From contig CM000151.3 of the NCBI GenBank assembly GCA_000004695.1, positions 2,048,001-2,112,000 on the forward strand: a stretch of 64,000 bases of DNA, read 5' to 3'. The translations under genes and the position numbers were made by a program. Below the pieces are notes generated by a model. It did no database searches. It was given only the letters and a program-made list of their open reading frames with translations, and was not told where the DNA came from. Source of the stretch: Dictyostelium discoideum. Its lineage: Eukaryota. Positions 17,311 to 37,389 of this stretch are shown in pieces; the stretch's first letter is position 1, and every line of letters begins with the position of its first letter.

Positions 17311-19345
<2,035 letters not shown>

Positions 19346-19474: not shown

Positions 19475-21478
<2,004 letters not shown>

Positions 21479-21718
21479 CTCTTTTAAAGATATTTATTTA
21501 TTTATCTTTTTTTATTTAGTGAAGTGAAACTGTTTAAGACAATAATAACATTTTTTTATTTTTTTTATTTTTTTTTATTAACAAAAATAAAAAAAAAGTT
21601 CCATATTTCCAAGAAATTTTTCGACAATTTATTTTTTTTAATTTTTTTTAATTTTTAAATTTTTTTTTTTTAGTCTTGTTTTATTTTTTTATTTGGATTA
21701 TTAAAATTAAAAAGCTGT

Positions 21719-21979
21719 ATGACATCTTCAAATGAGATAATTATTTTAGATGATGACGATGATGATGATAGTGAACAACAAAAAACACCAAGATTTCAAG
21801 TAAATAATGGAGCTGAAACAATGAAAAATTCAAATTCCGATATTAGAAAAAAAGTAAATAAAACAATTGTAAATAAAAAAAGAGAGTTATTGGCGAACAT
21901 CCATTCAAATAGATTTGATCGAATAGATAATAAAAAGATAAAAAGTGTTAATGACAATAAAACCAAGAATACCAACAGT

Positions 21980-22043
<64 letters not shown>

Positions 22044-23154
22044 GTGATGGTAATAAAACAACAATCCCAACAATAACCACTACAACTAGTAGTCCCAAAA
22101 ATATTATTTGTATAGATGATGATGACGATGATGCTATTGTAAATAATCTTAATACAAATAAAATAACAAGTAATTCAACAAAAGAAATAGTGCAAACAAA
22201 ACAAACGACACCAACAAAAGTACAGTCACCACGTTATCATAATAGTAATAGCAATAAAAGTCCCAATGCAAAATCAAATTTTTTAGCAGATATACACGAA
22301 AAAAGATTAAATATTGGTGATGGTGGTATTACAATCGATGAGAATTATCACAACGTTTCAAATGGAGATAACGATTCCTATCGACCAAATAATAATAATA
22401 ATAATATCAAAAGTAACAGTAACAGTAATAACAATTCAGATAAAATTAAAACTAATAAAGAACCATTTAATTTTCAACAATCACTAGACTTGAAAAAACA
22501 ATTGAATTCAATTAGAAATGAACAACATAAAAGCTATAGAAATGATAAATTAAATAAAAAGAAATTCTTTGACCTAAATGATATCGATACACTTCAAAAA
22601 CAAGAATTACAGAATAGAATGATTTCAGCATCAATGGAAACAACAATACCAACTGTTAATAGAAACGCTATTCATACAATTGATAATACTATATTACATC
22701 CTGAAGCAATTGGTAGAAAAGCATTGGAGTTTTCAAATAAATTTAGAAGTGCTCAAGGTAAACCATCATTAATTTGGAATCAAACTATTTATCATATAGG
22801 TGTTGAACATAGTAAAAGTAAGTATATAAATAATATATTATAACAATAGCAATAGCAATGATAAACATTAACATTTAATTATAATATATAGACATGGCAG
22901 AGAAAAAAGTTGCTTTTGGACATGATGGATTTAATGATAGAGCTAAAAGATACCCATTCCCATCAAGAGGAGCTGGTGAAAATGTTGCTTATACAAATGA
23001 TCCAGATGATATTGCAAATAAAGTGGTAAATGGTTGGATTAATTCACCTGGACATAGAAAGAATCTTCTTGGTAATTTTAATGTTTGTTCAATTGGCGTT
23101 TATAAAAATAGTGAAGGTTTTTGGTACTTAACTCAATTATTTGGTCTTCAATAA
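21719..23154 (+). CDS. CAP/SCP/PR-1-like domain protein with long N/S/D-rich N-terminal extension, 453 aa, 2 exons
   Basis: Exon 1 is 21719..22817 (phase 1, GTAAGT donor), the intron 22818..22891 and exon 2 22892..23154. The C-terminal 150 aa reads HTIDNTILHPEAIGRKALEFSNKFRSAQGKPSLIWNQTIYHIGVEHSKN... GENVAYTNDPDDIANKVVNGWINSPGHRKNLLGNFNVCSIGVYKNSEGFWYLTQLF. This carries the CAP-family GEN, W-x-SpGHr-N-L and C-S-x-G-x-Y..Q-F motifs. Confidence 0.6.
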
Positions 23155-23212
23155 TAATTTAATAAACAATATAATAAATAATAAACAATAAAATATAATA
23201 ATAAATAATAAA

Positions 23213-23347
<135 letters not shown>

Positions 23348-23498
23348 GGAGAAACATATCATAATATGTAAATTAGTTTTTTAATATATTCTGAAATGTT
23401 TTTAAATAAATATAATACAATGTATTTAGATATTATTGATATTTTATTGATATATTTTATTATTACATGTGTGTTAAAACTTTATATATATATTTATT

Positions 23499-23747
23499 TT
23501 ATTCGTCTTTAAGTAAAATGACATCAACATTGTCGTGAACACGTTGGAGTAAGATTTCACCTTGGAAAGTGATGATACCTCTCTTTTTAGCAGCTTTGAG
23601 TGTACCAACTAATGCTTCGAAAAAGTTTGCAACATCATCATCATTGAATAAAACACCATATTTGACAGAGTACTTTCCATCAGCACCCTTGGTTCCAAGT
23701 TTTTTAATAAATTTGACTAATTCCTTAACTTCGTGATCAACGTCCAT
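23499..23747 (-). CDS. cosA: Costars (ABRACL / STARS C-terminal-domain homologue), 82 aa
   Basis: Single-exon ORF MDVDHEVKELVKFIKKLGTKGADGKYSVKYGVLFNDDDVANFFEALVGTLKAAKKRGIITFQGEILLQRVHDNVDVILLKDE. It aligns position-for-position with human ABRACL (MNVDHEVNLLVEEIHRLGSKNADGKLSVKFGVLF...EALVGTLKAAKRR.I.T.PGELLLQGVHDDVDIILLQD). Confidence 0.85.
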   Translation of the reverse strand: MDVDHEVKELVKFIKKLGTKGADGKYSVKYGVLFNDDDVANFFEALVGTLKAAKKRGIITFQGEILLQRVHDNVDVILLKDE

Positions 23748-23928
23748 TCTTTACTAAAAAAAAAAAAAAAAAGTATTAAAACCCAAATAAAATACTTCTG
23801 ATTTATTAAAAAAAAAAAAAAAAAAAAAATCATTTAATGATCACACATACATATATGCTTTTACAAAAATTTTTAATGAAAATAAAAAAAAAAAAAAAAA
23901 AAAACAAAAATAAAAAATCAAAAAAACC

Positions 23929-23985
<57 letters not shown>

Positions 23986-24142
23986 AAAACCCAAAATAAA
24001 ATAAAATGAAATTAATTAATAAAACCCCTACATGATTAAAATAATGCTAAATTAAATAAGATAAATTGTTTTTTATTTTATTTTATTTTATTTTATTTTA
24101 TTTATTTTATTTATATTATTTTATATTATTTTAATAGTTTAT

Positions 24143-27100
24143 TTATTTTGAGTATTTGGCAAGGATATGATTGAATATCATTTGGATCAGGTTATTTTCA
24201 CCACCATTACCATATGACCCAATTGATTGAAGGAATGATATTTGTTCTTTTGAGATACCATAGGCTTTTTCAAAATTGTATTTTTGATCAAAGTCTAAAG
24301 TGTGGAAAGTTCTTAATTTAATACAAACTTTTTCATTAGAATCCATCACCATACGCTTCCACTGTTTAAAATTAACTTCTTTACAATTTCCACCTTTTTC
24401 ATTTTTTAATACTTGGAGAATTTTAACAGAATTAATAACTTCACCATAAACATTATAGATCTTTAATGAAGAATCTGAAGAATCTTTAAAGTTATCATTA
24501 AACATTATTTTAATTATATTATCGGCTACCCAATTCACAGGTGAACATAATAAATTAATATCTACTTCTTTATCAGATGGGAAATAACCTAATTTAAAAC
24601 TTGATTGAAGCATCAATTGAGTGATATCACCATAATGACCAATACCAGTATCAGGATTTGAAAATATACTTGGAGCTCTAAATATAATTGATGGAATTTT
24701 AAATCTTGATGATGCTTCAGTTAATAAAAATTCAGAAATTACTTTACTTTGCATATAACCTGTTGGTAAATTATTTATTGTTTCAAGTTTTGGAGTTGCA
24801 ATTGATCCATTAAATTCTTGATTGTAAAATACTGAAAATGTTGATATTGTAAGTATTGGTTTTGGTTGGTGGTGTTGTTGTTGTGTTGGTTTACCAAAAA
24901 GTGAAAGTTTAATAATTTCTTTTAAACTATTAACATTTACTTGTTTACATTCGTAATAATTTGCTCTTAGATTAATATCAGCACCACTATTTAAAAGTAA
25001 ATTTGTATTGTTTGAAATTAATGAATAATTATAATCAGATAAACCAAACTTCTTTTTAGTTAAATCTCCAACAATTGGTATAATTTTTGAAAGATGTTTT
25101 TCATTTAATTGTTTATAATATAATTGATGATGTTTTAAATTATTCAAAATCTCATCAACTGGATTACTAGATTTACTTTTATTTCTTAATAAACAATAAA
25201 CTACTGAACAACATTCCATTTGAATTAAATACCAAAGTAAATAAGCACCTAAAAATCCTGTACTACCTGTTAAAAATATTCTTAATTCATTTTCTTTAAA
25301 TTCTTTAATTTCTATTTGATTTCTTATTGAATTTGATGAAATTAAATTAAATTCATCATCATCAAGTTTAATTTCATTTTTCCAAAATTCTTCAGATTCT
25401 ATTGTTTTATTTTCAGGAATATTATTATTTTTTTTATTTTGTCGATGTTGTTGTTGTTGTCCATCACCAATTTTTAATTTTAATTGATTTGTAATTAATT
25501 TAATTGATGATGATATTGTGTTTGATTGAAGTTGTTGAATTGTAATTAAACTAGAGTAGATTTCTTTATCAATCCAATTTTTTAATTGAACTGTTAATAG
25601 TGAGTCTGCACCATACTCAAGTAATCTTAAATCTTGATTAATCTTTGATACTTCAATAGATAATAGTTCTGATAGTTTATTTAAAAATAAACTATCTATA
25701 CTTGTGTCATTTTCAATTTTTTTATTATTTGTTAATTCATTATTTTCAATTAGATTTGTAATGAAATCGAATTTATGTATCATTGGATGTTTTTTATAAT
25801 GTTCAAATAAAGTTTTAAAATTAAATGGTGATACTATTAAATTTGTAGATTGAAAAACATTTTGAATTTGTGAATCTAATAAACCCAATATCATATTGAT
25901 AGGTAATGGATACAAACCTTGGCCATCTAATAGCTGTGCAATTGATTCATTTCTTGAAACTAAACCTGCAGATTGAACAGATCCATAATTTGTACAAATT
26001 GAAGGTAAACCAATTGATTTCCTATATCTTGATAATGAATCTAATACTCTATTAGAACAAACATAAGAACATTGATCAACTGAACCAATTATTGATGCAA
26101 CTGATGATGATAATATAAATTGTTTTAATTTCCAATTTCTTTTTATAGATTGATTATGTAAATTAATTGCACCCATTGTTTTTGCACCATGTGAAATTTC
26201 TAAACTTTTCATATCGATTTCATTTACACCACAAAATGTAAATTCAAATGCAAAATGAAAAATTGAATCTATATTTGTTATTGTTTTTGAATTTCCATTT
26301 AAAATTTGATCAATTGCATTATCAACACTAATCGAATTACTAACATCAACACTCTTAAAATGAAAATTAATATGTTTATTCTTCTTTATTAATAATTCTA
26401 AACCCCATTTCATTGATGATTTTGAAAGAACTATAATATTTTTAACATTTTCTGAAAATTTAACAATCCATTTTAAAATTTCTAAAATAATACCAGACTG
26501 ACCTGTTACTAATATTGTTGAACCTAAATGATCTTGATTATTACTATTAATTTTATAATTTGTTTTTAAAATTGAAAAATTTGAATTAATTTGATTTTTA
26601 TGAACATCAATTAAATCACTTAGAATGTTAATATCATTATTTACAACTATTTTACCAATATGTTTACGTTTATTAATATATTCAATTGCTACTTTAATTG
26701 TTGAATTTGAAAATTCAGTAATTGGCATTAAGTTTAATTCATGATTTTCAATAGCTCTAGTTATTTTCTTTAACATTCTCTGTATTAATGTTTTTTCAAT
26801 AAATAATAATTCAACATTATGATAGCCAAAATTATATTTAAAATTATTATTATTTATATATTCATTTGGATTTAAATGAGTGATTGATAAATCTACAATT
26901 CTACCACCAATATTTAAACATTTGAAATTTGAATCCATATAATCACTTGATAAAGTATTTAATATTAAATCTACACCATGTTTATCTGATTTTAATTGTT
27001 TTAATTTTAACTTTATCTCTTCTGAATAGTCTTTGTTCATTGTTGAATAAATTCCAGTTATAAAATCACCATAGGTATTGATAAGGTATTGCTCTTTCTC

Positions 27101-30100
27101 TTTTGAACCTACAGTAACGAATATATGTGATTTATGACCTTTCCATTTCAATATATTCAATGCTGATAATCCTATACCACCTGAACCTGAATGAATTAAT
27201 ATTGATTCATTTCTTTTAATTTTTAAATTTCCAACATTAAATATTGAATGATATGATGTTAAATAAACACCTGGTATTGACGCTGCCTCAATATGATTAA
27301 TATTAGTTGGTTTATGGTAAATCTGATTGTAATCAACTATGATATGTGTTGAAGTTGTATCATAACCAATACCATAAATTTGATCGCCTATCTTGAAATC
27401 ATTAATATTACTACCAATGGCTGAAACAATACCTGAAAATTCCAAACCAAATTCTGGATCATTTATATCATTATTATGACTAACCATTTCAGGTGGTAAA
27501 AGTCCACAATAAAGTAAATAATCTTTATAATTTATACCAGTTGCCTTAACATGAACTTCTAATTGATTCTCTTTTAATGATTTCTTTGAATCTAAAATAA
27601 ACTCTAAATTTGGTGATAGTTTTGCATATAATTGATTGATATCATTTACAAATGATTCAGATATAACAAATGTTTTATTTAAATTTGAATTTCTCTTATA
27701 TCTTTCATAATAAACTTTGTTATCTCTAATTTTAAATTCTTTTTGAATGAATTTATTTGAATCTAATAATAATTGAATAGTATTATTTAATTCTTTATTG
27801 TTTATTGATTTTTGATCAAAATCCAAAGAGAATAAATTAAGTTGAGGAAATACTTCAAAATATCTTGCTGCACCAATTACCGAAGCTGATAAATAATTAA
27901 TATTATCAGAATTTAATGTAATTAAAACATTTTTACATTTTAAATTATTTGATAATAATATTTGATTAATTTGAATGTATTCTAATGTTACAAATTTGAA
28001 ATTATCAATTGTTAATTGATTAATTGCTTTTGTAAAATAAACAATTGATTTATCAGTAATAATTGATTTTTTAATTAATTCATTAAATTGTTGAACATTT
28101 GAAATTGTTGTTGTTGATACCTCTTTAAATAATGATAATTCATTATCACCATAGATAATGATATTATTATTATTATCATCATTAATTTGAGTAATTGTTT
28201 CAATATTGTTTAAATTTGAATAGATTGAAGGCTTTTGAGTATGTATTACATAAAAACTTGGTATTTCAATTGACATTATAACTTTAACTTCATTAAAACT
28301 ACAATCTAATAATAAATTATTCCAAGATTCTTTAGGCATACAACATCTATCTTTTCTTATAGTTAAATCTGTAAAACACCACCATTGATCGAATACACCG
28401 AATATATTATCTAATAAAATTGATTTATAAATTGGTTCTACAAATACAAGTTGACCATTTGGTTTTAATATTTCATAAATTTGATTAATTGGTGGTTTTA
28501 ATTGTTTAACTACATGTAATACATTTGACATTATTACAAAATCATAATATGATGGTTTTAACATTTGTTCAGTAATTAATTGCTTTTCAAGATTTAATGG
28601 TTTATAAATGATATGAATATTTTGATTTATATGTGAAAACTTGGATTTGGCATCTGGAATGAAGGATGGTGATATATCACTCCATGTATATTCTATATCG
28701 ATTTCACTATTTGGAAATTCTATCAATAATTCATTGATTTTATTTAATACAATCAATGATAATGATGCTACACCACCTCCAAATTCTAATATTCTAAATA
28801 CCATCTTTTCATTTAAATTTGGTAAAATTGATTCACTTATAATATTAGCAATCACTTGATTATGAATTTTAAGAATATGATAATTTGAATAGAAATTATC
28901 TAACATTCCATTGTCAAATAATGATTGAGGTGTATCATTTGAAGGATCGTCATCTATCAATGGAAATAACAATTTTGCAACGATTTTTGTTGATTTTAAT
29001 AATATTTCATAATGTTCTATATTATTTTCATTATAATAATGTTGATGATCATCAACATTATTAACATCAATAACACTATCTTTTAAGGTTTCAAAAATTG
29101 ATTTGAATAATTTTGAATGTTTATCATCATTTAAATATTTTTCAAGTAATTGAATTATATCCATTGATTTGATTATTTCTATATTAAGTTGTGGACATCT
29201 TTTAACTATATTTGAATATAATTGATTTGAAATGAAATTTTTCAAAATTGAAATGTCATAATTTTTAACTTTTTCATTCATCCTATCAGGTTCATCAAGT
29301 TGTTGAGTGAATTTTGAAGGTGATGGTATTGGTGAATCAATTAATTGATTATATGTTGAATATAAATCATTTAATGGTGGTTGTATTATTGATGAATCTT
29401 TAATTATTGTTAAAGATTTACATACTAATTTATTCATTTCAATTAAAATTCTACCATCTTCAAACATAACTATGATTGAACTTGAAAATGAATCTCCTAT
29501 TCTTTTAAAACTATATGAATATGAATATAGTTTAATTTCTTTATCAGATGATAATTCTAAAAATGATGGTATATTTGATGAATAATATTTAAATCCTTCA
29601 ACTTTTTCAAATACTAATTGACATTGTTCATCAACTAATCCAACTGAACTATGTAAACAAGAATCCAATACTGATGGTGTGAAAAGAGTTGATGATGATG
29701 GTTTAATTGGTATAACAGCTAATGAACAATCATCACCTAAGTAACACTCTGAAACTGTTTGAAATTCACCATTGTATGATAATCCAGTTTTTGATTTAAT
29801 ATTTTGATATAATTCATTCTTTGTTAATTTTGTTAAATTACATTTATTATTAATTAATTCTTGAATATTATACTTTTTATTTACATTATTACCACTTGTA
29901 AATAATTGGAAATTACCATTTGATGATTGTACCCATTCATTTGATTTATTATCTTTAAAATGGAATTGTACTTTAAATTCAGTTTTACCAGTTTGAAATA
30001 TATTTGTTTGTAAACATTGATTAATACCATCTATTAAAATTAATGGTGATTTAAATTCCATTGAACCAATAGTCAAATCTTGTGATGGATATAATTTCAA

Positions 30101-32535
30101 TAGATTATCAATATAACCACAACCTGGGAAATAGTATTTACCATTCACAATATGACCTTTAAGATATTTGAATGGTTTCTTACTAATATCAATAAATGTT
30201 TGATATGATTTAACATTTGGTGAACTTTCAATTAATGAAAAACCAAGTTGGTCAATTGGAGGTCCTTGAAATTTGTGTTTTTGTTGAACTAAATCTTCTT
30301 TCCAATATTTTTTATCATCCCATTGATAATTTGGTAATATTATTTCTTGATTATTATTATTATTAATTATTTGCTCATCTTTGAATTGTGATTTAAAATT
30401 GATGTTATATCGATTATCACAATAAAGTTTAGCAATTGTTTTTTGAATCTCTTGAATATCATTCTTTTTCTTATGAAGTGCTGAATATATTGAAACTTTG
30501 AAATTAGTTTCTTCAGTAGTTGACAAAGATGATACAGGTATCATTTGTTTTAAATAAAACTGTAATGTTGGATGTGGTGCTAATTCAATGAATACAATTT
30601 CATTTCCTAATTTATTTATTTCAATATGTTTATATAAATTTGAAATTGTTTGGGAAAATTTAACTGGTTTTATTATGTTATTATAAACATATTCGGAGTT
30701 GAATGGTGTTGTTGAAGATTCGTATAAATTTGTTGTTACTGTTGAAAAAATTGGTATTGTTGGTGATTGATGATTAATGTTTAAATTTAAGATTTGATCT
30801 TTTGTAATCTTTTGATTTGAAGTATGGAAAGATGATAATGAAGCTAACATTGTTGAGAAAATTCCTTTATCTTTTAATTCATTTGATATTTGATTTAATT
30901 GTTGTTCATTACCTCCCAATACAATTGAATTTGGTGAATTGTAACATGCAATTTCAATATCTGGGTATTTAGTTGAATAATTTGATGATAAATAATCTTC
31001 AGAACTAATACCAATTGATAACATTCTACCACCATTACAATGTGTTTCAATTTGTGCTAATGATCTATGATAAATTAAATAACATAAAGTATCCAATGTA
31101 ATCATACCTGAGCAATAGGCTGCTGGAATTTCACCTAAACTATGACCAACTATAAATGATGCTTCAATACCCCAATGTTTATATAATTCGAATAATGATA
31201 TCGTTAACATACAAACTATTGGTTGTGCAATTGTTGGATGTTGAATACTTCTATCTCCATCATCTATAATTGATCTAAATTTATTTAAAACTGAATATTC
31301 ATAATACTTTAATAGTTCATCATCTAATAAATCCATTGATTTTTTGAAAATTGGTTCATTATTATACAATTCCAATGACATTGTATTATATTGTGAACCT
31401 TGACCCGCAAACACAAATACAGTAATTGGATTATTTTGAACTTTTGACATATTTGATGATTGTGTATTAGATGTTTGAATTTTATTTGTTGATTCAATAT
31501 TTTCACTAAATTCATTCCAATTTGAAGCAGTAACTACACAACGTTGGTAAAGTGAACTTGATTTACTAAAAATTTGTTGTTTAACAAACTCTTTAAAATC
31601 ATTTGATTTTTTAAACAAATAATCATTAACCACCGATTCATACTGTTTTAATGATTGTACTGAATTTGCAGAAAATGGTACTAAATACTGTTTTTGAGTT
31701 TGTAAATTTTTTAAATCTTCACTATGTGTGCAACTGTTTTTGTTGTTGTTGTTTTTATTGTTACCTTTGTATTCTGATAAAATTAAGCAACAATTTGAGC
31801 CGGTAATACCAAAATTATTTAAAATCATTGAAAAATTATCAGTTTTTTGGAGATCTTTGAAATGGATAGGTTCTGTAACAACTTTTAAATTCCATTCGTC
31901 AAATTTAATTGATGGATTTGGATTTTTAAAATTAATATTTGGTGTTAGATATTTGTTTTTAAACATTAAACAACATTTAACCAATGATGCAGAACCTGAA
32001 GCTGCTTCTAAATGACCAATTGAACTTTTAATTGATCCAATTAATAATGGTTGTTGACTTAAGGTGGAATTATTTGAAGAATGTGTTTTAAAAACTCTTG
32101 ACATTCCATCCAATTCAACTGGATCACCAGTTGGTGTACCGGTACCATGTGCTTCAATATAAACTATATCTTCAAGTTTCACAGTTCCATTGGTTGATGA
32201 AAATGCATTATTAACATTATCAGCTTGTGATATTGATGATGGTGAATAAAAGTTTTGTTTATCTTTTAAACCGTTACCATCAACATTTGAACTTGCACCT
32301 TTAATAACACAATAAATGTTATTACCATCTGCAACTGATTGTTTTAAACTCTTTAAAACTAATAACGCAACACCTTCTCCTCTAACGAATCCATCTGCAC
32401 TTTCATCAAATGTCATACATTTGCCTTGACTTTTACTTAACATATTCAAATATGAAAAAGATTTTGATGAATTTGTTTCTAAAAATCATAAAATAAAATA
32501 AAATATGTTAGTATTTAAAAAAGTTTAAAATAGAG

Positions 32536-32577
<42 letters not shown>

Positions 32578-33242
32578 ATACCAAATAATGAATTTACACC
32601 TCCAACAATTGATAAATTTGAGAAACCACTTTTAATTGATTGATAGCCTAATCTTATTGCATTTAATGATGATGAACATGCAGTATCTATAGTTATTGAT
32701 TCACCAGAGAAATCAAAACAATGTGATATACGATTTGCAATGGTACTTAATGCCGATCCAAAAACGTTTGTTTGTGTTGAATTTGGATTTTTGCTAATAT
32801 CTTTATAATCAACTGATGTACAACCAATGAAAACTGATGTTTTTGAACCACGAATTTTGATTGGATCAATATTTGAATCTTCTAATGCTTCCCATGTACA
32901 TTTTAATAATAATCTTTGTTGTGGATCAATAGTTGATACTTCAGATGGATTAATACCAAAAAATAATGGATCAAATGATTTCCATTCATCAAGTGGTAGT
33001 AAACCTGCATTTCCATTTGAAATTTCACCCAATTCATTAAAATTATCGCTCCATCTTTCAGTGGTTTTAACAACACCATCAAATCCATTCATTAAATTAT
33101 TCCATAATTCTTTTGTTGAATCATTTGATTTACTTAAATCTCCTGATGGTAATCTGAATCCAATTCCAATAATTGCAATATCATCCTCGTTTTCATTTGG
33201 TTTCGCTAGTTTATAAGATGATAAGTTAGTATTGTTTGTCAT
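24143..33242 (-). CDS. Iterative type I polyketide synthase, about 2998 aa: KS-AT-DH-cMT-ER-KR-ACP-C-terminal NAD(P)-binding reductase (R) domain; 2 exons
   Basis: Exon 1 is 33242..32582 (MTNNTN...; KS active-site DTACSSSL; phase 1, GTATGT donor), the intron 32581..32479 and exon 2 32478..24143. Total is 8997 nt, a multiple of 3. Motifs with approximate nt positions: [13 protein letters not shown] about 32155; AT GHSLGE about 31147..31130; [13 protein letters not shown] about 30155; methyltransferase [13 protein letters not shown] about 28790; [16 protein letters not shown] about 27190; [16 protein letters not shown] about 26515; [16 protein letters not shown] about 25610; R domain [15 protein letters not shown] about 25280. 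No thioesterase or chalcone-synthase domain, so it is not a Steely-type hybrid. Confidence 0.9.
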
Positions 33243-33847
33243 TATTAAAAAAAAAAGTGAAAAAGTTAAAAATAAAAAAAAAAACAAATTTAAAATGATA
33301 GAAAGTTAATTATTGTAAGGTTGAAAAAATAATGGAATACAAATAAAAATAATTTCTATTTAAATAATTGGGTACAAAAAAAAAAAAACTACATTTTAGG
33401 GAATTTACGATTTTAGATAGGTGTATGTCGTGAAAAAAAAAAAAAAATTTAATAAAAAAAAAAAAAAAAAGTCTTTTTGTCGGAAAAATGTATTATGAAA
33501 ATAAAAAATTAAACCCCACATTAACATATTAATTAATTATTGGATTCACACTAAAATGTTAAATTTTTTTTTTTTTTTTTTTTCAAAAATTCTTTAAATT
33601 TATAAAGATTTTCGAAAAAAATAAAAAATAAAAAAATAAAAAAAAAATCAAATAATTTTATTTGCCAAATCTCATTATATCTGAAATTAAATCTCTAATT
33701 TGAAAATATTTTTGTAAGCTTTATCTTTTGCTTGAAAATAATTTTTTACAAGATAAGAAAAATATATTTTGTTGTTTTTTTTTATGGGAGTAGATCAACC
33801 CAAACTTTTATTTTTTTTTTTTTTCTGGTCTGGTTTTATGAAACTCG

Positions 33848-33934
33848 TCAATGGGTTTGTTTTTGTTTTTTTAATTGTGGGTGTTGAGATTTTTGATAAA
33901 TTGGTTTAATATTTTGAAAATTATTTTCAATTTC

Positions 33935-33991
<57 letters not shown>

Positions 33992-34099
33992 TGGTTGTTG
34001 TTGTTGTTCATTTGGTTGTTTAGGTTGCTTTGGATGTTGGGGTTGTTGTGGCGGTTTTGCTTGTTTTGCTCGTTGTTCTCTTGGTAGTTTTGGTTGTTT

Positions 34100-34180
<81 letters not shown>

Positions 34181-34426
34181 TGGTTGTTGTTGTTGTTTTG
34201 GTTGTTTTGGTTGTTTTGGTAGTTTTGGTTGTGGTTGTTCTCTTGGTTGTTCTGTTTGTGTCGATTTTTGTTGTTGCTGTTGTTGTTGATATTGTTTAAG
34301 ATGCTGTTGGATTAAAGCTTGATCTTGGTCTTCCAACTCTTGTGTGGTTTGGTATTGAACCTGTTGTGCTTTCATTTCAAGTTCAGGTTTAAAATTATTA
34401 AACCTGTTTGATTTATTTTGATAATG

Positions 34427-34519
<93 letters not shown>

Positions 34520-35841
34520 ATTAAAAATACTATTTTTATTATTATATGAACTATTATTATATAAATTATTATTATATAAATTATTTAAACAATCTTTAAT
34601 ATCATCAGAAGATTGTAGTTTTAATTCTGAATTAAAGAAATGATTATTTCTAAAGGTATTAATTAATTTATATTTAAGAGGAGATATATTTCCGCTATTG
34701 TTATTGTTATTATTATTACTATTATTATTATTAAATAGCTCTTCATAAAATTCAATTGATCTATTTGGAAGTATATTAAAAAATAAAGTTGGAGAGAATT
34801 GTAATTGTGATTGTTGATAAGGTGTTAATTTTGATTTATCAGTTTTAGTATTAAATAGAGTTGTTAGAGTATCAATTGCATCTGATTTTCTAAATTCTTT
34901 CTCCATTCTCTTTCTATCCATTATATTAAAATGTGGTGTTTCCTTATAAATTGGATGATAAATGGTTGGAAATAAATGTTTATTCGAATAGTCAATTAAT
35001 AATATACCAAATAATAATGGTACTGGTGGTAATGGATTCTTTAAAATATTTGAATAATTTTGAATTTTTAATAATTCTCTTTCAATTTCACAAATATCAA
35101 AATTATTATCATTATTACTATTATTATTATTATTATTATTATTTAGAAATCTAATTGGAAAATTCTTAAAAACTTCTGATGAAATAACTGATTTAATTGG
35201 AAAACTAAAATTAAAATCATTACATTTACCACCAAAATAATTTATGTGCCAAATTAAACCATAAAGATAATGATTTAATAAAATGTCTTTTTTACTATAA
35301 GCTGCTGCTGTAGTTGTTGTTGTTGTTATTGTTTCCTTTTCATTCATTTTAACATCTCCATCTTCATTTTCAATTTCATTTTCAATTTCATTCTCATTTT
35401 CAATTTCATTCTCATTTTCAATTTCATTTTCTTCAAAATCTTCATCTTCGTCTTGATTATCATCTTCATCTTCATCATTCTCATTACAACCATCATCCTC
35501 TTCTTCACTATTATCATCAGCATCATTATCATTACAACCATTTTTAACAGAAGTGAATAAATTGTATAATTTATAAATATATTTCTCTTTAATAATATTT
35601 ATATTTGATTCCCAAAATGGATGATTTATAGATAAAAATGATCTAATTAAATAATCTATATCATTTGATGAATCTACTATTTTATTTTCAATGATGATAT
35701 TATATCTTGTTTTTATTTTACTATTACTACCATTTCCCTTATCTTTTTCACATTTAAAATTTTGAGTTGGTTGACTTATTCCTTTTGATAAACAATAATA
35801 ATTACCTGCGTTATTAAATAATGATTTTAATATTTGAGGTG

Positions 35842-35937
<96 letters not shown>

Positions 35938-35970
35938 GCTGTTGCTGTTGTTGATTATTGTTAACATCGC

Positions 35971-36055
<85 letters not shown>

Positions 36056-37389
36056 AAAACGATTACGATAAAATAAACGTGGTTGTGAAGATTTTCCAAT
36101 TAATCTAAATAATAAATCTAAATTTATTAAACCTGTTTCTTCATTATATAATGGTTTCTTAATTTTACAATATTCACTCCATGCTGAGCCTATATTATAT
36201 GATGATACTTTTGGTAAATGATCAGTACCCATTAAAAATGTTAACATTACGAAATCAACTATTGCTTGTCTTCTTTTACTAATATCTTCTTCTTCCTCTT
36301 CTTCTTCCTCCTCTTCTTCTTCAATTTGCACCCCTTCTTCTTTTTCCTCTGTTGCTATTCCTTCACCTTCTCCTTCCACTTCTCCTCCTGATTTTTTTTG
36401 TTGTTTTTGTTTTTTTTGTTTCTTTTTATAACATTGTTGATAAATTTTATCTCTAATTTTATCAATTTTAATAATTTCTTCAGAATCTTTATTATAAATA
36501 TAAACATTTTTATATTTTGATAATAATGAAAATAATAAAATATCTGAATCACTAATAATAATAATAATAATAATAAAAATAATATTAATAAATGATTGAT
36601 GATAAACTATTATTATTATTGTTATTATTATTATTTTAATTAATACATACCTTGAAACTATTGTAAATGAATCATTTATTGGATAATTTGAATTTAAAAT
36701 TTGTTCGAAAATTTTAAATTCTCCTTCACCAATTCTATCAGATGCAGAAATAAAAATCTTTTTTGCAAAATATAATTTATTCTTTGTATAAAATATTAAA
36801 AAATCTTTTAATTTACCCATAAATGTAGTACCTGGTGTGAATTCTAATGTTGAGAATGAGCTATCAAATGATTTTAAATCATTTTCATTTAAATAATCAT
36901 AATCGTGAAGTTGAGGTGATTGTTGTTGTTGCTGTTGTTGCTGTTGTTGTTGCTCTTTATTTCTATTTATAAAATATTTTAATTTATCTATATTCCCATT
37001 CTATATAATAATAAATAATAATAATAATAATAAAAATGTTGTATACTACTATTAGTAATTGATGTATATATTTTATATTTTATATTTTATATTTTTACCT
37101 TTAATCTTCTTTCTCTTTGTAATATCATTTTTGATCTAGGACCAGGACCATCAATACCAAAGAATACGGAATGTTTAACACGAACTTTTCTTAAAATTCC
37201 ATCTATAAAAGATTTTAATATTCTAAAAACATTTACTTCTGTATTTAATTTGGAATTATCTCCCCTTTTAACTGATTTATGTAAATAATTATTTAAATCT
37301 ATATATACATGATCGGTGGTAATTTCTTTTACTTTTTCAACACAACCAAATTGTTTACCCATGAATAAATTTAATCCCTCAATACCCAT
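33848..37389 (-). CDS. XRN-family 5'-3' exo(ribo)nuclease-like protein, divergent, about 1114 aa with very long poly-Q/poly-N/acidic inserts; 3 exons
   Basis: Exon 1 is 37389..37099, intron 37098..37001, exon 2 37000..36651, intron 36650..36552 and exon 3 36551..33848. Phases check (291+350+2704 = 3345 nt). Conserved XRN N-terminal-domain motifs are present: YIDLNNYLH (compare YLDMNGIIH), GIDGPGPRSKMILQRERR (compare AIDGVAPRAKMNQQRSRR), TPGTTFM, IGEGEFKI (compare PGEGEHKI), ISDSDILL (compare GLDADLIM), FLMGTDHLP (compare FVGNDFLPH) and YGLIWHINYF. The N-terminus MGIEGLNLFMGK is not the canonical MGVPKFFRW. Confidence 0.65.

Follow-up and report, generated by a model that had tools for sequence, protein, structure and literature searches.

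The 64,000-nucleotide stretch of Dictyostelium discoideum DNA analysed here (GenBank assembly GCA_000004695.1, contig CM000151.3, positions 2,048,001 to 2,112,000 of the forward strand; hereafter the window, to which all nucleotide coordinates refer) harbors on its minus strand pks14, a gene for a large polyketide synthase (PKS). The coding region occupies 24143..33242, with the ATG at 33242 and the TAA at 24143..24145, and appears in the open reading frame (ORF) listing as two long minus-strand ORFs, 24143..32449 and 32508..33287. Scripted splicing and translation of exon 1 (33242..32582, 661 nt, coding for residues 1-220 and supplying the first base of codon 221) and exon 2 (32478..24143, 8,336 nt including the TAA stop) yielded a coding sequence of 8,997 nt that is in frame, contains one stop only, at its end, and specifies 2,998 residues. 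The phase 1 intron between them (32581..32479, 103 nt, GTATGT...TTTTAG) has canonical GT..AG junctions and carries a run of 41 T residues. At the local base composition, stop codons are expected in ~9.4% of codons, and a tract of 2,768 codons lacking a stop would arise by chance with a probability of ~1e-118. An exact-sequence look-up revealed that all 2,998 residues are identical to DDB_G0272859 of D. discoideum AX4 (XP_644930.2, UniProt Q558Y6), with the matching AX4 record being the 8.48-Mb chromosome 2; the database name of Q558Y6 is 'Probable polyketide synthase 14', the other label is 'hypothetical protein', and no function is attached. A preliminary description of this locus had proposed a PKS of about 3000 residues from Dictyostelium, with a single 103-nt intron bearing (T)41 within the ketosynthase domain, and had recommended naming the paralogue within the known pks set. 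The protein length and species agree with the exact match, the intron was described exactly as to length, site and T count, and the paralogue is pks14. Taking identity and architecture together, we are virtually certain that the window gene is the already annotated pks14, encoding an iterative highly reducing type I PKS.

The order returned by Pfam is ketosynthase (KS), acyltransferase (AT), methyltransferase (MT), enoylreductase (ER), ketoreductase (KR), acyl carrier protein (ACP) and NAD_binding_4, the last being the terminal reductase (R), with sub-threshold dehydratase (DH) models placed between AT and MT. This agrees with the order KS-AT-DH-cMT-ER-KR-ACP-R (cMT, C-methyltransferase) given in the preliminary description, the DH being recognized by its conserved motifs, and all eight motifs quoted there lie where they are expected: DTACSSSL at residue 186, GHSLGE at 665, HxxxGxxxxP at 996-1005, LEFGGG at 1451, HSGSGGIG at 1983, VTGQSGI at 2211, GADSL at 2510 and LTGSTGFLG at 2623. 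Catalytic positions were read from an alignment of 130 family members, each of at least 2,300 residues. The KS (residues 20-404; 31928..33185, intron included; PF00109 4e-65, PF02801 2e-28) has the triad Cys189/His331/His376, which is invariant in 128-130 relatives, and is followed by a KS C-terminal extension in Pfam (residues 407-520). In the AT (residues 574-866; 30542..31420; PF00698 3e-38), Ser667 of GHSxG, the carboxylate-binding Arg692 and the catalytic His772 are invariant in 130 relatives, as is the phosphopantetheine Ser2513, within GADSL, of the ACP (residues 2472-2564; 25448..25726; PF23297 5e-31). The DH (residues ~985-1244; 29408..30187) scored just under the Pfam gathering thresholds; the call therefore rests on the conserved His996, Pro1005, Asp1159 and His1163, the motifs His996..Pro1005 and Asp1159..His1163 being kept in 128-130 relatives. 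The C-methyltransferase (residues ~1442-1588; 28376..28816; PF08242 2.5e-10, PF13489 7e-07) has the majority residue at each motif position, comprising Glu1452 followed after one residue by Gly1454-1456, His1542 and Glu1568. The ER (residues 1857-2166; 26642..27571; PF08240 (ADH_N) and PF13602 (ADH_zinc_N_2)) carries GSGGIG at 1985-1990, and the KR (residues 2208-2389; 25973..26518; PF08659 2e-22) carries Gly2213, Gly2216, Lys2320, Ser2346, Tyr2359 and Asn2363. The motifs of a full reducing loop are thus present, namely the K/S/Y/N set of the KR, HxxxGxxxxP plus DxxxH of the DH and the NADPH glycine motif of the ER, with KR and ER above their Pfam thresholds. Every catalytic position in pks14 holds an invariant, majority or common residue of the family, and all eight domains look catalytically competent on this reading, with no sign of a dead domain. 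With a single KS and a single ACP, Pks14 comprises one module, and tblastn found no second module elsewhere in the window. In the sequence-level features tested, Pks14 agrees with an iterative highly reducing type I PKS of the D. discoideum PKS (DdPKS) family, with iterative extension itself being predicted.

The R domain (residues 2623-2998, 24146..25273; NAD_binding_4 match 2623-2875) lies directly C-terminal of the ACP, separated from it by a 55-residue linker, and runs up to the stop codon. It scored 150 bits with PF07993 (8e-44; cut-off 20.1), and the NCBIfam thioester reductase (TR) model TIGR01746 (1e-46) is the best-scoring family for this tail, although below its curated cut-off. Comparison with PDB sequences by phmmer placed the MxaA myxalamid reductase (4u7w, 3e-22) first and a type I PKS thioreductase (8v1x, 4e-16) second, followed by R domains of nonribosomal peptide synthetases (NRPSs) and carboxylic-acid reductases (CARs). 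The segments of Pks14 and MxaA pair as TGSTGFLG/TGATGFLG, CLLRNK/CLVRSK, ISTFS/VSTVS and GYMQSK/GYAQSK. Residues kept in the R domain of Pks14 include the T2624-G-x-x-G2628-x-x-G2631 motif, Arg2652 as the residue for the 2'-phosphate, Asp2692, Thr2767, Tyr2795 and Lys2799. Among R-bearing relatives, Thr2624, Gly2625, Gly2628, Gly2631, Arg2652, Asp2692, Ser2766, Tyr2795 and Lys2799 are conserved in 57-65 of 66-67 sequences (Tyr2795 in 65 of 67, Lys2799 in 62 of 66), and position 2767, a Thr in pks14, is Ser in 44 and Thr in 16, i.e. one or the other in 60 of 67. In 18 diverse dictyostelid R domains, Leu40, Thr41, Gly42, Gly45, Gly48, Arg69, Ser183, Tyr212 and Lys216 (numbering of the R fragment) are invariant. 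An AlphaFold model of the R domain built with the 18-sequence alignment (predicted local distance difference score, pLDDT, 81; predicted template-modelling score, pTM, 0.88) displayed the Rossmann beta-alpha pattern. In a Foldseek search of this model against the PDB, 4u7w/4w4t (TM 0.74/0.78) and 8v1x (TM 0.75/0.79) came out on top, and the first 27 matches were all TR or CAR R domains, ranked above generic extended short-chain dehydrogenases/reductases (SDRs). The alignments to 4u7w and 8v1x span 392-418 columns and cover both TR subdomains, including the C-terminal substrate-binding one. These data show that the R domain carries the residues and, as modelled, the fold of an active thioester reductase. 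The preliminary description had called the terminal domain an NAD(P)-binding reductase, and the PF07993, MxaA and 8v1x matches together with the modelled TR fold bear this out, with reductive off-loading staying a prediction; it had also raised loss of the SDR catalytic residues as an outcome that would overturn the call, and we found TGxxGxxG and the SDR Thr/Tyr/Lys retained.

Evidence from selection and orthology points in the same direction for the gene as a whole. Based on Nei-Gojobori estimates, the ratio of nonsynonymous to synonymous substitution rates (dN/dS) of the whole gene was 0.25 between AX4 and the wild isolate ACTFIW and 0.27 between AX4 and D. firmibasis; the corresponding values for the R domain (0.27 and 0.24) were indistinguishable from those of KS, DH and ER. 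The R domain is under purifying selection like the rest of the gene. Linkers diverge faster than domains, with the ACP-R linker at a dN/dS of 0.63-1.4. Full-length pks14 alleles of 2,985-2,998 residues are found in four D. discoideum isolate assemblies, two of them ~94% identical to AX4, and the D. firmibasis orthologue (3,019 residues, 74% identity) is syntenic with a full-length frame, so the premature stops on resequencing that the preliminary description had flagged were not seen. Downstream of the D. firmibasis gene lie Costars, a CAP-domain gene, a gene of 627 residues and arginyl-tRNA synthetase, and Costars and arginyl-tRNA synthetase lie on the same side of pks14 in the window. Among the best 120 matches listed, the closest D. 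purpureum proteins are ~50% identical to Pks14, vs. 74% for the D. firmibasis orthologue. The codon and phase of the intron (phase 1, after GGVNxL) are common to pks14, the ACTFIW allele, the D. firmibasis orthologue and a 69%-identical paralogue, with intron lengths of 103, 80, 115 and 93 nt, respectively.

Forty pks genes are counted as functional in D. discoideum (PMC12625978). All 40 DdPKSs were modelled in a 2025 study on the cryo-electron microscopy structure of Pks16, in which 21 were found to bear an off-loading enzyme after the ACP: two of these are chalcone synthases (Pks1, Pks37), and the remaining 19 are, most probably, monomeric thioester reductases (PMC12828403). The further claim in the preliminary description, namely that hardly any PKS of Dictyostelium has been given a product, also stands, with products assigned solely for Pks1/StlA, Pks37/StlB, Pks5 (dictyodenes) and Pks16 (fatty acids) (PMC12828403, PMC12625978). 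On sequence grounds, the dictyostelid PKSs form a family of their own, and almost all of the best 120 listed family matches to Pks14 are named dictyostelid proteins; the PKS family in dictyostelids has undergone a lineage-specific expansion, read as ecological in the D. purpureum genome paper (PMC3188802). Other TR-bearing D. discoideum PKSs (pks6, pks9/36, pks30, pks45) have the same KS-AT-DH-MT-ER-KR-ACP-TR layout and R motifs as pks14. Identity of pks14 to its TR-bearing D. discoideum paralogues is 38-54%; as no product has been assigned to any of them, they are uninformative on function. R is the least conserved catalytic domain, with 48% identity between pks14 and pks9/36. We also observed that a 90%-identity cluster unites the R-less pks7 (2,513 residues) with pks6 (2,924 residues) and pks9/36 (2,931 residues), both of which bear R; loss or gain of this domain has therefore occurred between recent duplicates that are nearly identical.

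Among characterized systems, Pks5 (dictyodene synthase) and Pks16 (fatty acid synthase) share the family and the KS-to-ACP core with Pks14. Pks5 is KS-AT-DH-MT-ER-KR-ACP and has no TR (PMC9618038); Pks16 is the cell's fatty acid synthase with an inactive MT (PMC12828403), and we take it from its length of 2,603 residues (a 5,206-residue homodimer) to end at the ACP. With no TR in either, and an inactive MT in Pks16, their release chemistry is not transferable to Pks14. As for the terminal domain, the NADPH-dependent R of MxaA (myxalamid PKS-NRPS of Stigmatella aurantiaca, 4u7w/4w4t) has TGxTGFLG, the Arg, the Thr/Ser and YxxxK in common with that of Pks14; however, it is located behind the carrier protein of an NRPS within a modular bacterial assembly line, whereas in Pks14 the R comes after the ACP of an iterative PKS from a eukaryote. 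The MxaA product is an alcohol, formed by 4-electron reduction (PMC8024701). The Streptomyces coelicolor type I PKS thioreductase 8v1x, second-best by both sequence and structure (query residues 32-362, ~19% identity), is like the R of Pks14 a PKS rather than an NRPS terminal reductase, but comes from a modular bacterial PKS. We take this enzyme to be the coelimycin CpkC TR, whose reduction presumably ends with the aldehyde. In fungi, highly reducing PKSs that terminate in an R domain (betaenone type) follow the same iterative KS-AT-DH-cMT-ER-KR-ACP-R logic, with aldehyde release; in contrast to this fungal type, the dictyostelid enzymes constitute a separate family and lie outside biosynthetic gene clusters. 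In its proposed mode of action, Pks14 resembles a highly reducing PKS core of fungal style to which a terminal reductase of the MxaA and PKS kind has been joined.

Viewed together, we think it quite probable that pks14 encodes an iterative highly reducing PKS with reductive release. In the mechanism we propose, KS, AT and ACP would build the chain from malonyl units, KR, DH and ER would reduce each beta-keto group and the C-methyltransferase could add alpha-methyl branches. Once complete, the chain, bound as an acyl thioester to Ser2513 of the ACP, would be passed to the terminal NADPH-dependent thioester reductase; hydride transfer there would free it as the 2-electron product, an aldehyde, or, if reduced a second time, as the 4-electron product, a primary alcohol. 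The reductive-release mechanism taken by itself is probable in our judgment, as suggested by the conserved R residues and the modelled fold. We infer the use of each domain, the release step and a reduced lipid-like aldehyde or alcohol as the product; given the apparently competent KR, DH, ER and cMT, this product is likely saturated or largely reduced, and likely bears one or more alpha-methyl branches. The choice between aldehyde and alcohol, the chain length, the methylation pattern and the extent of reduction are not derivable from sequence.

Some of our data and of the published record weigh against this interpretation, as evidenced by: 1) both DH Pfam models falling just under gathering (22.9 vs. 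23.7 bits; 18.3 vs. 27); 2) TIGR01746, albeit the best-scoring family for the tail, reaching 159.7 bits vs. a curated cut-off of 213.35; 3) the R domain being only ~24% identical to MxaA; 4) the C-terminal subdomain of R being poorly conserved even among dictyostelids, and therefore its substrate and the extent of reduction not being readable from sequence; 5) the determinant of 2- vs. 4-electron reduction being unsettled even for R domains with crystal structures (PMC8024701); 6) the selective use of tailoring domains by iterative PKSs, in which intact-looking domains may idle in some or all cycles (PMC12828403). In addition, a literature search on Dictyostelium pks14 / DDB_G0272859, with the Zucko 2007 catalogue and the Ghosh 2008 expression survey lying outside the search, found no statement on a product, knockout, phenotype or expression; a pks14 entry is absent from the supplements of PMC12828403, and a search for the name pks14 returned only a paper on Beauveria pks14 and one on Legionella, in which the string is presumably no gene name.

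Could the R domain be retained for a structural or regulatory purpose, with the chain leaving by hydrolysis or via a trans-acting enzyme, as in the ~19 DdPKSs that end at the ACP? Close paralogues do work without an R domain, as pks13 (2,551 residues), pks7 and pks8/35 (~2,513 residues) end at the ACP, with pks7 being the R-less member of the pks6 and pks9/36 cluster described above, while Pks5, with a known product, has no TR (PMC9618038), and the sub-threshold TIGR01746 score would also fit a domain that does not release. On the other hand, all NADPH-binding and catalytic residues are kept, the dN/dS of 0.24-0.27 on R equals that of KS, DH and ER, and a purely structural domain need not keep Thr/Tyr/Lys and TGxxGxxG nearly invariant across 66-67 R-bearing relatives; we therefore deem a non-releasing R domain quite unlikely. 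A different concern is that release is reductive but the role is other than making a secondary metabolite for signalling or ecology, with Pks14 acting in lipid metabolism in the manner of a fatty acid synthase (FAS); ether lipids, waxes or spore/stalk coats are examples of where its long-chain fatty aldehydes or alcohols would then be used. Besides the intact KR-DH-ER set and the lack of adjoining tailoring genes, this scenario draws on the terminal Pfam family, which includes fatty acyl reductases (rice DPW, 7eoz, was among the structural matches), on Pks16, a member of the same family that is the cell's fatty acid synthase (PMC12828403), and on the Cryptosporidium type I FAS, whose terminal R is reported to act on very long acyl thioesters (PMC2995488). 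However, the cMT motifs are intact in pks14 whereas the MT is inactive in Pks16 (PMC12828403), and the lineage-specific expansion of the PKSs has been read as ecological (PMC3188802); the drop from 74% identity in the syntenic D. firmibasis orthologue to ~50% in the closest D. purpureum proteins, among the best 120 matches listed, likewise speaks against such a role. We regard it as unlikely.

Both remaining alternatives appear very improbable to us. One holds that the terminal domain is a non-redox R*, releasing the chain by Dieckmann-type cyclization as in tetramic-acid PKS-NRPS hybrids, and the reductase-like domain of the fungal PKS-NRPS PsoA was indeed among the weak PDB sequence matches (1.5e-05). 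Pks14 has no NRPS module and hence no aminoacyl beta-ketoamide to cyclize, and its best matches by sequence and structure are true reductases. Dieckmann R* domains typically have another residue in place of the catalytic Tyr, but Tyr2795 is present here and kept in 65 of the 67 relatives. The other sees in pks14 a paralogue that is decaying or not expressed, within a large family that evolves fast. In its favor, the catalogue of Zucko et al. from 2007 reportedly listed more pks genes than the 40 regarded as functional today, and the literature search described above gave no expression statement. The uninterrupted frame of 2,998 codons (chance ~1e-118), the full-length alleles in four isolates, the syntenic full-length D. 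firmibasis orthologue and a dN/dS of ~0.25 across the catalytic domains all argue against decay, as does the published count of 40 functional pks genes itself (PMC12625978). Reductive release by an active, iterative PKS is thus the explanation we favor.

With respect to its surroundings, pks14 is a solitary gene and not a cluster member. A tblastn search of Pks14 against the 64-kb window gave no match besides the gene itself, and the neighbouring ORFs, inspected by Pfam and translation, include no P450, halogenase, methyltransferase, transaminase or transporter; a biosynthetic gene cluster around pks14 was rejected on these grounds. The flanking ORFs encode Costars (23499..23747) and an XRN-like low-complexity protein (33848..36820), and the other neighbours comprise a TRAF-type zinc-finger protein, arginyl-tRNA synthetase, a SUN-domain protein, a glutathione-reductase-like flavoprotein and ORFs with no Pfam match, together with Ctf18-like and MCM-like proteins as judged by eye from the translations. 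Between pks14 and Costars, ~160 nt downstream of the pks14 stop, we noticed a T run of ~53 nt (minus-strand reading, 23930-23982). The arginyl-tRNA synthetase is split in two plus-strand ORFs (17311..18525 and 18629..19345), the first of which ends in a long poly-Asn translation; this end is probably read-through into an AT-rich intron and not real coding sequence.

Comparison among isolates yielded several additional observations. The intronic poly-T tract varies, with T41 in AX4 and T19 in ACTFIW (GCA_054859355.1) in an otherwise nearly identical intron, while the orthologous intron of D. firmibasis has only short T runs; a functional role for the (T)41 run was rejected on account of its shortening to T19 in ACTFIW and its absence from the orthologous and paralogous introns. 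ACTFIW and ACTFIR, both labelled D. discoideum, have pks14 proteins ~94% identical to AX4, with a synonymous divergence (dS) of ~0.10. In ACTFIW, the only isolate whose DNA was compared, the flanking DNA is 85-92% identical to window positions 21000-35700, i.e. equally or more diverged than the gene, and the divergence is therefore lineage-wide and not specific to pks14; pks14-specific hyper-diversity or balancing selection behind the 6% protein divergence was rejected accordingly. We surmise that ACTFIW and ACTFIR may constitute a cryptic sister lineage. The ACTFIT allele departs from AX4 only at residues 2982-2997 (24146-24200, the last ~17 codons), where changes are clustered and two 1-residue indels occur; this looks like compensating frameshifts or an assembly difference. 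Between AX4 and ACTFIW, the MT (28376-28816) is the sole catalytic domain with an excess of replacements, at a dN/dS of ~3.1 (nonsynonymous and synonymous differences per site, pN 0.034 and pS 0.011, over 160 codons) vs. 0.18 against D. firmibasis; this within-species excess is probably small-number noise. The R-bearing pks14-like paralogue of 69% identity mentioned above occurs in the wild isolates ACTFIW and ACTFIZ (the latter as 'cf. discoideum') and in D. citrinum. Its 90% cluster has no AX4, ACTFIT or ACTFIR protein inside, and we therefore take it for an apparent presence/absence paralogue; the ACTFIW copy is situated ~8 kb downstream of a gene for a terpene synthase (PF19086).

The sequence feature itself adds nothing new, given that the literature already contains the gene, its name and the occurrence of a TR on roughly every second D. 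discoideum PKS; the preliminary description read a known gene correctly de novo, and TRs on 19 of the 40 have been published before (PMC12828403). The remaining question is one of chemistry and product, which pks14 has in common with ~35 other D. discoideum PKSs. We consider pks14 a reasonable target for product work, with its competent-looking domains, an R domain under the same selection as the core and a syntenic D. firmibasis orthologue; the product of Pks5 was solved by overexpression combined with knockout metabolomics. That Pks14 would be the first TR-bearing Dictyostelium PKS to get a product, in the form of a methyl-branched reduced aldehyde or alcohol made by a stand-alone gene and serving as a developmental signal or an ecological agent, is a speculative and, as a whole, somewhat unlikely proposition. 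If true, the product of Pks14 would open up the ~19-member TR subclass of amoebal PKSs.

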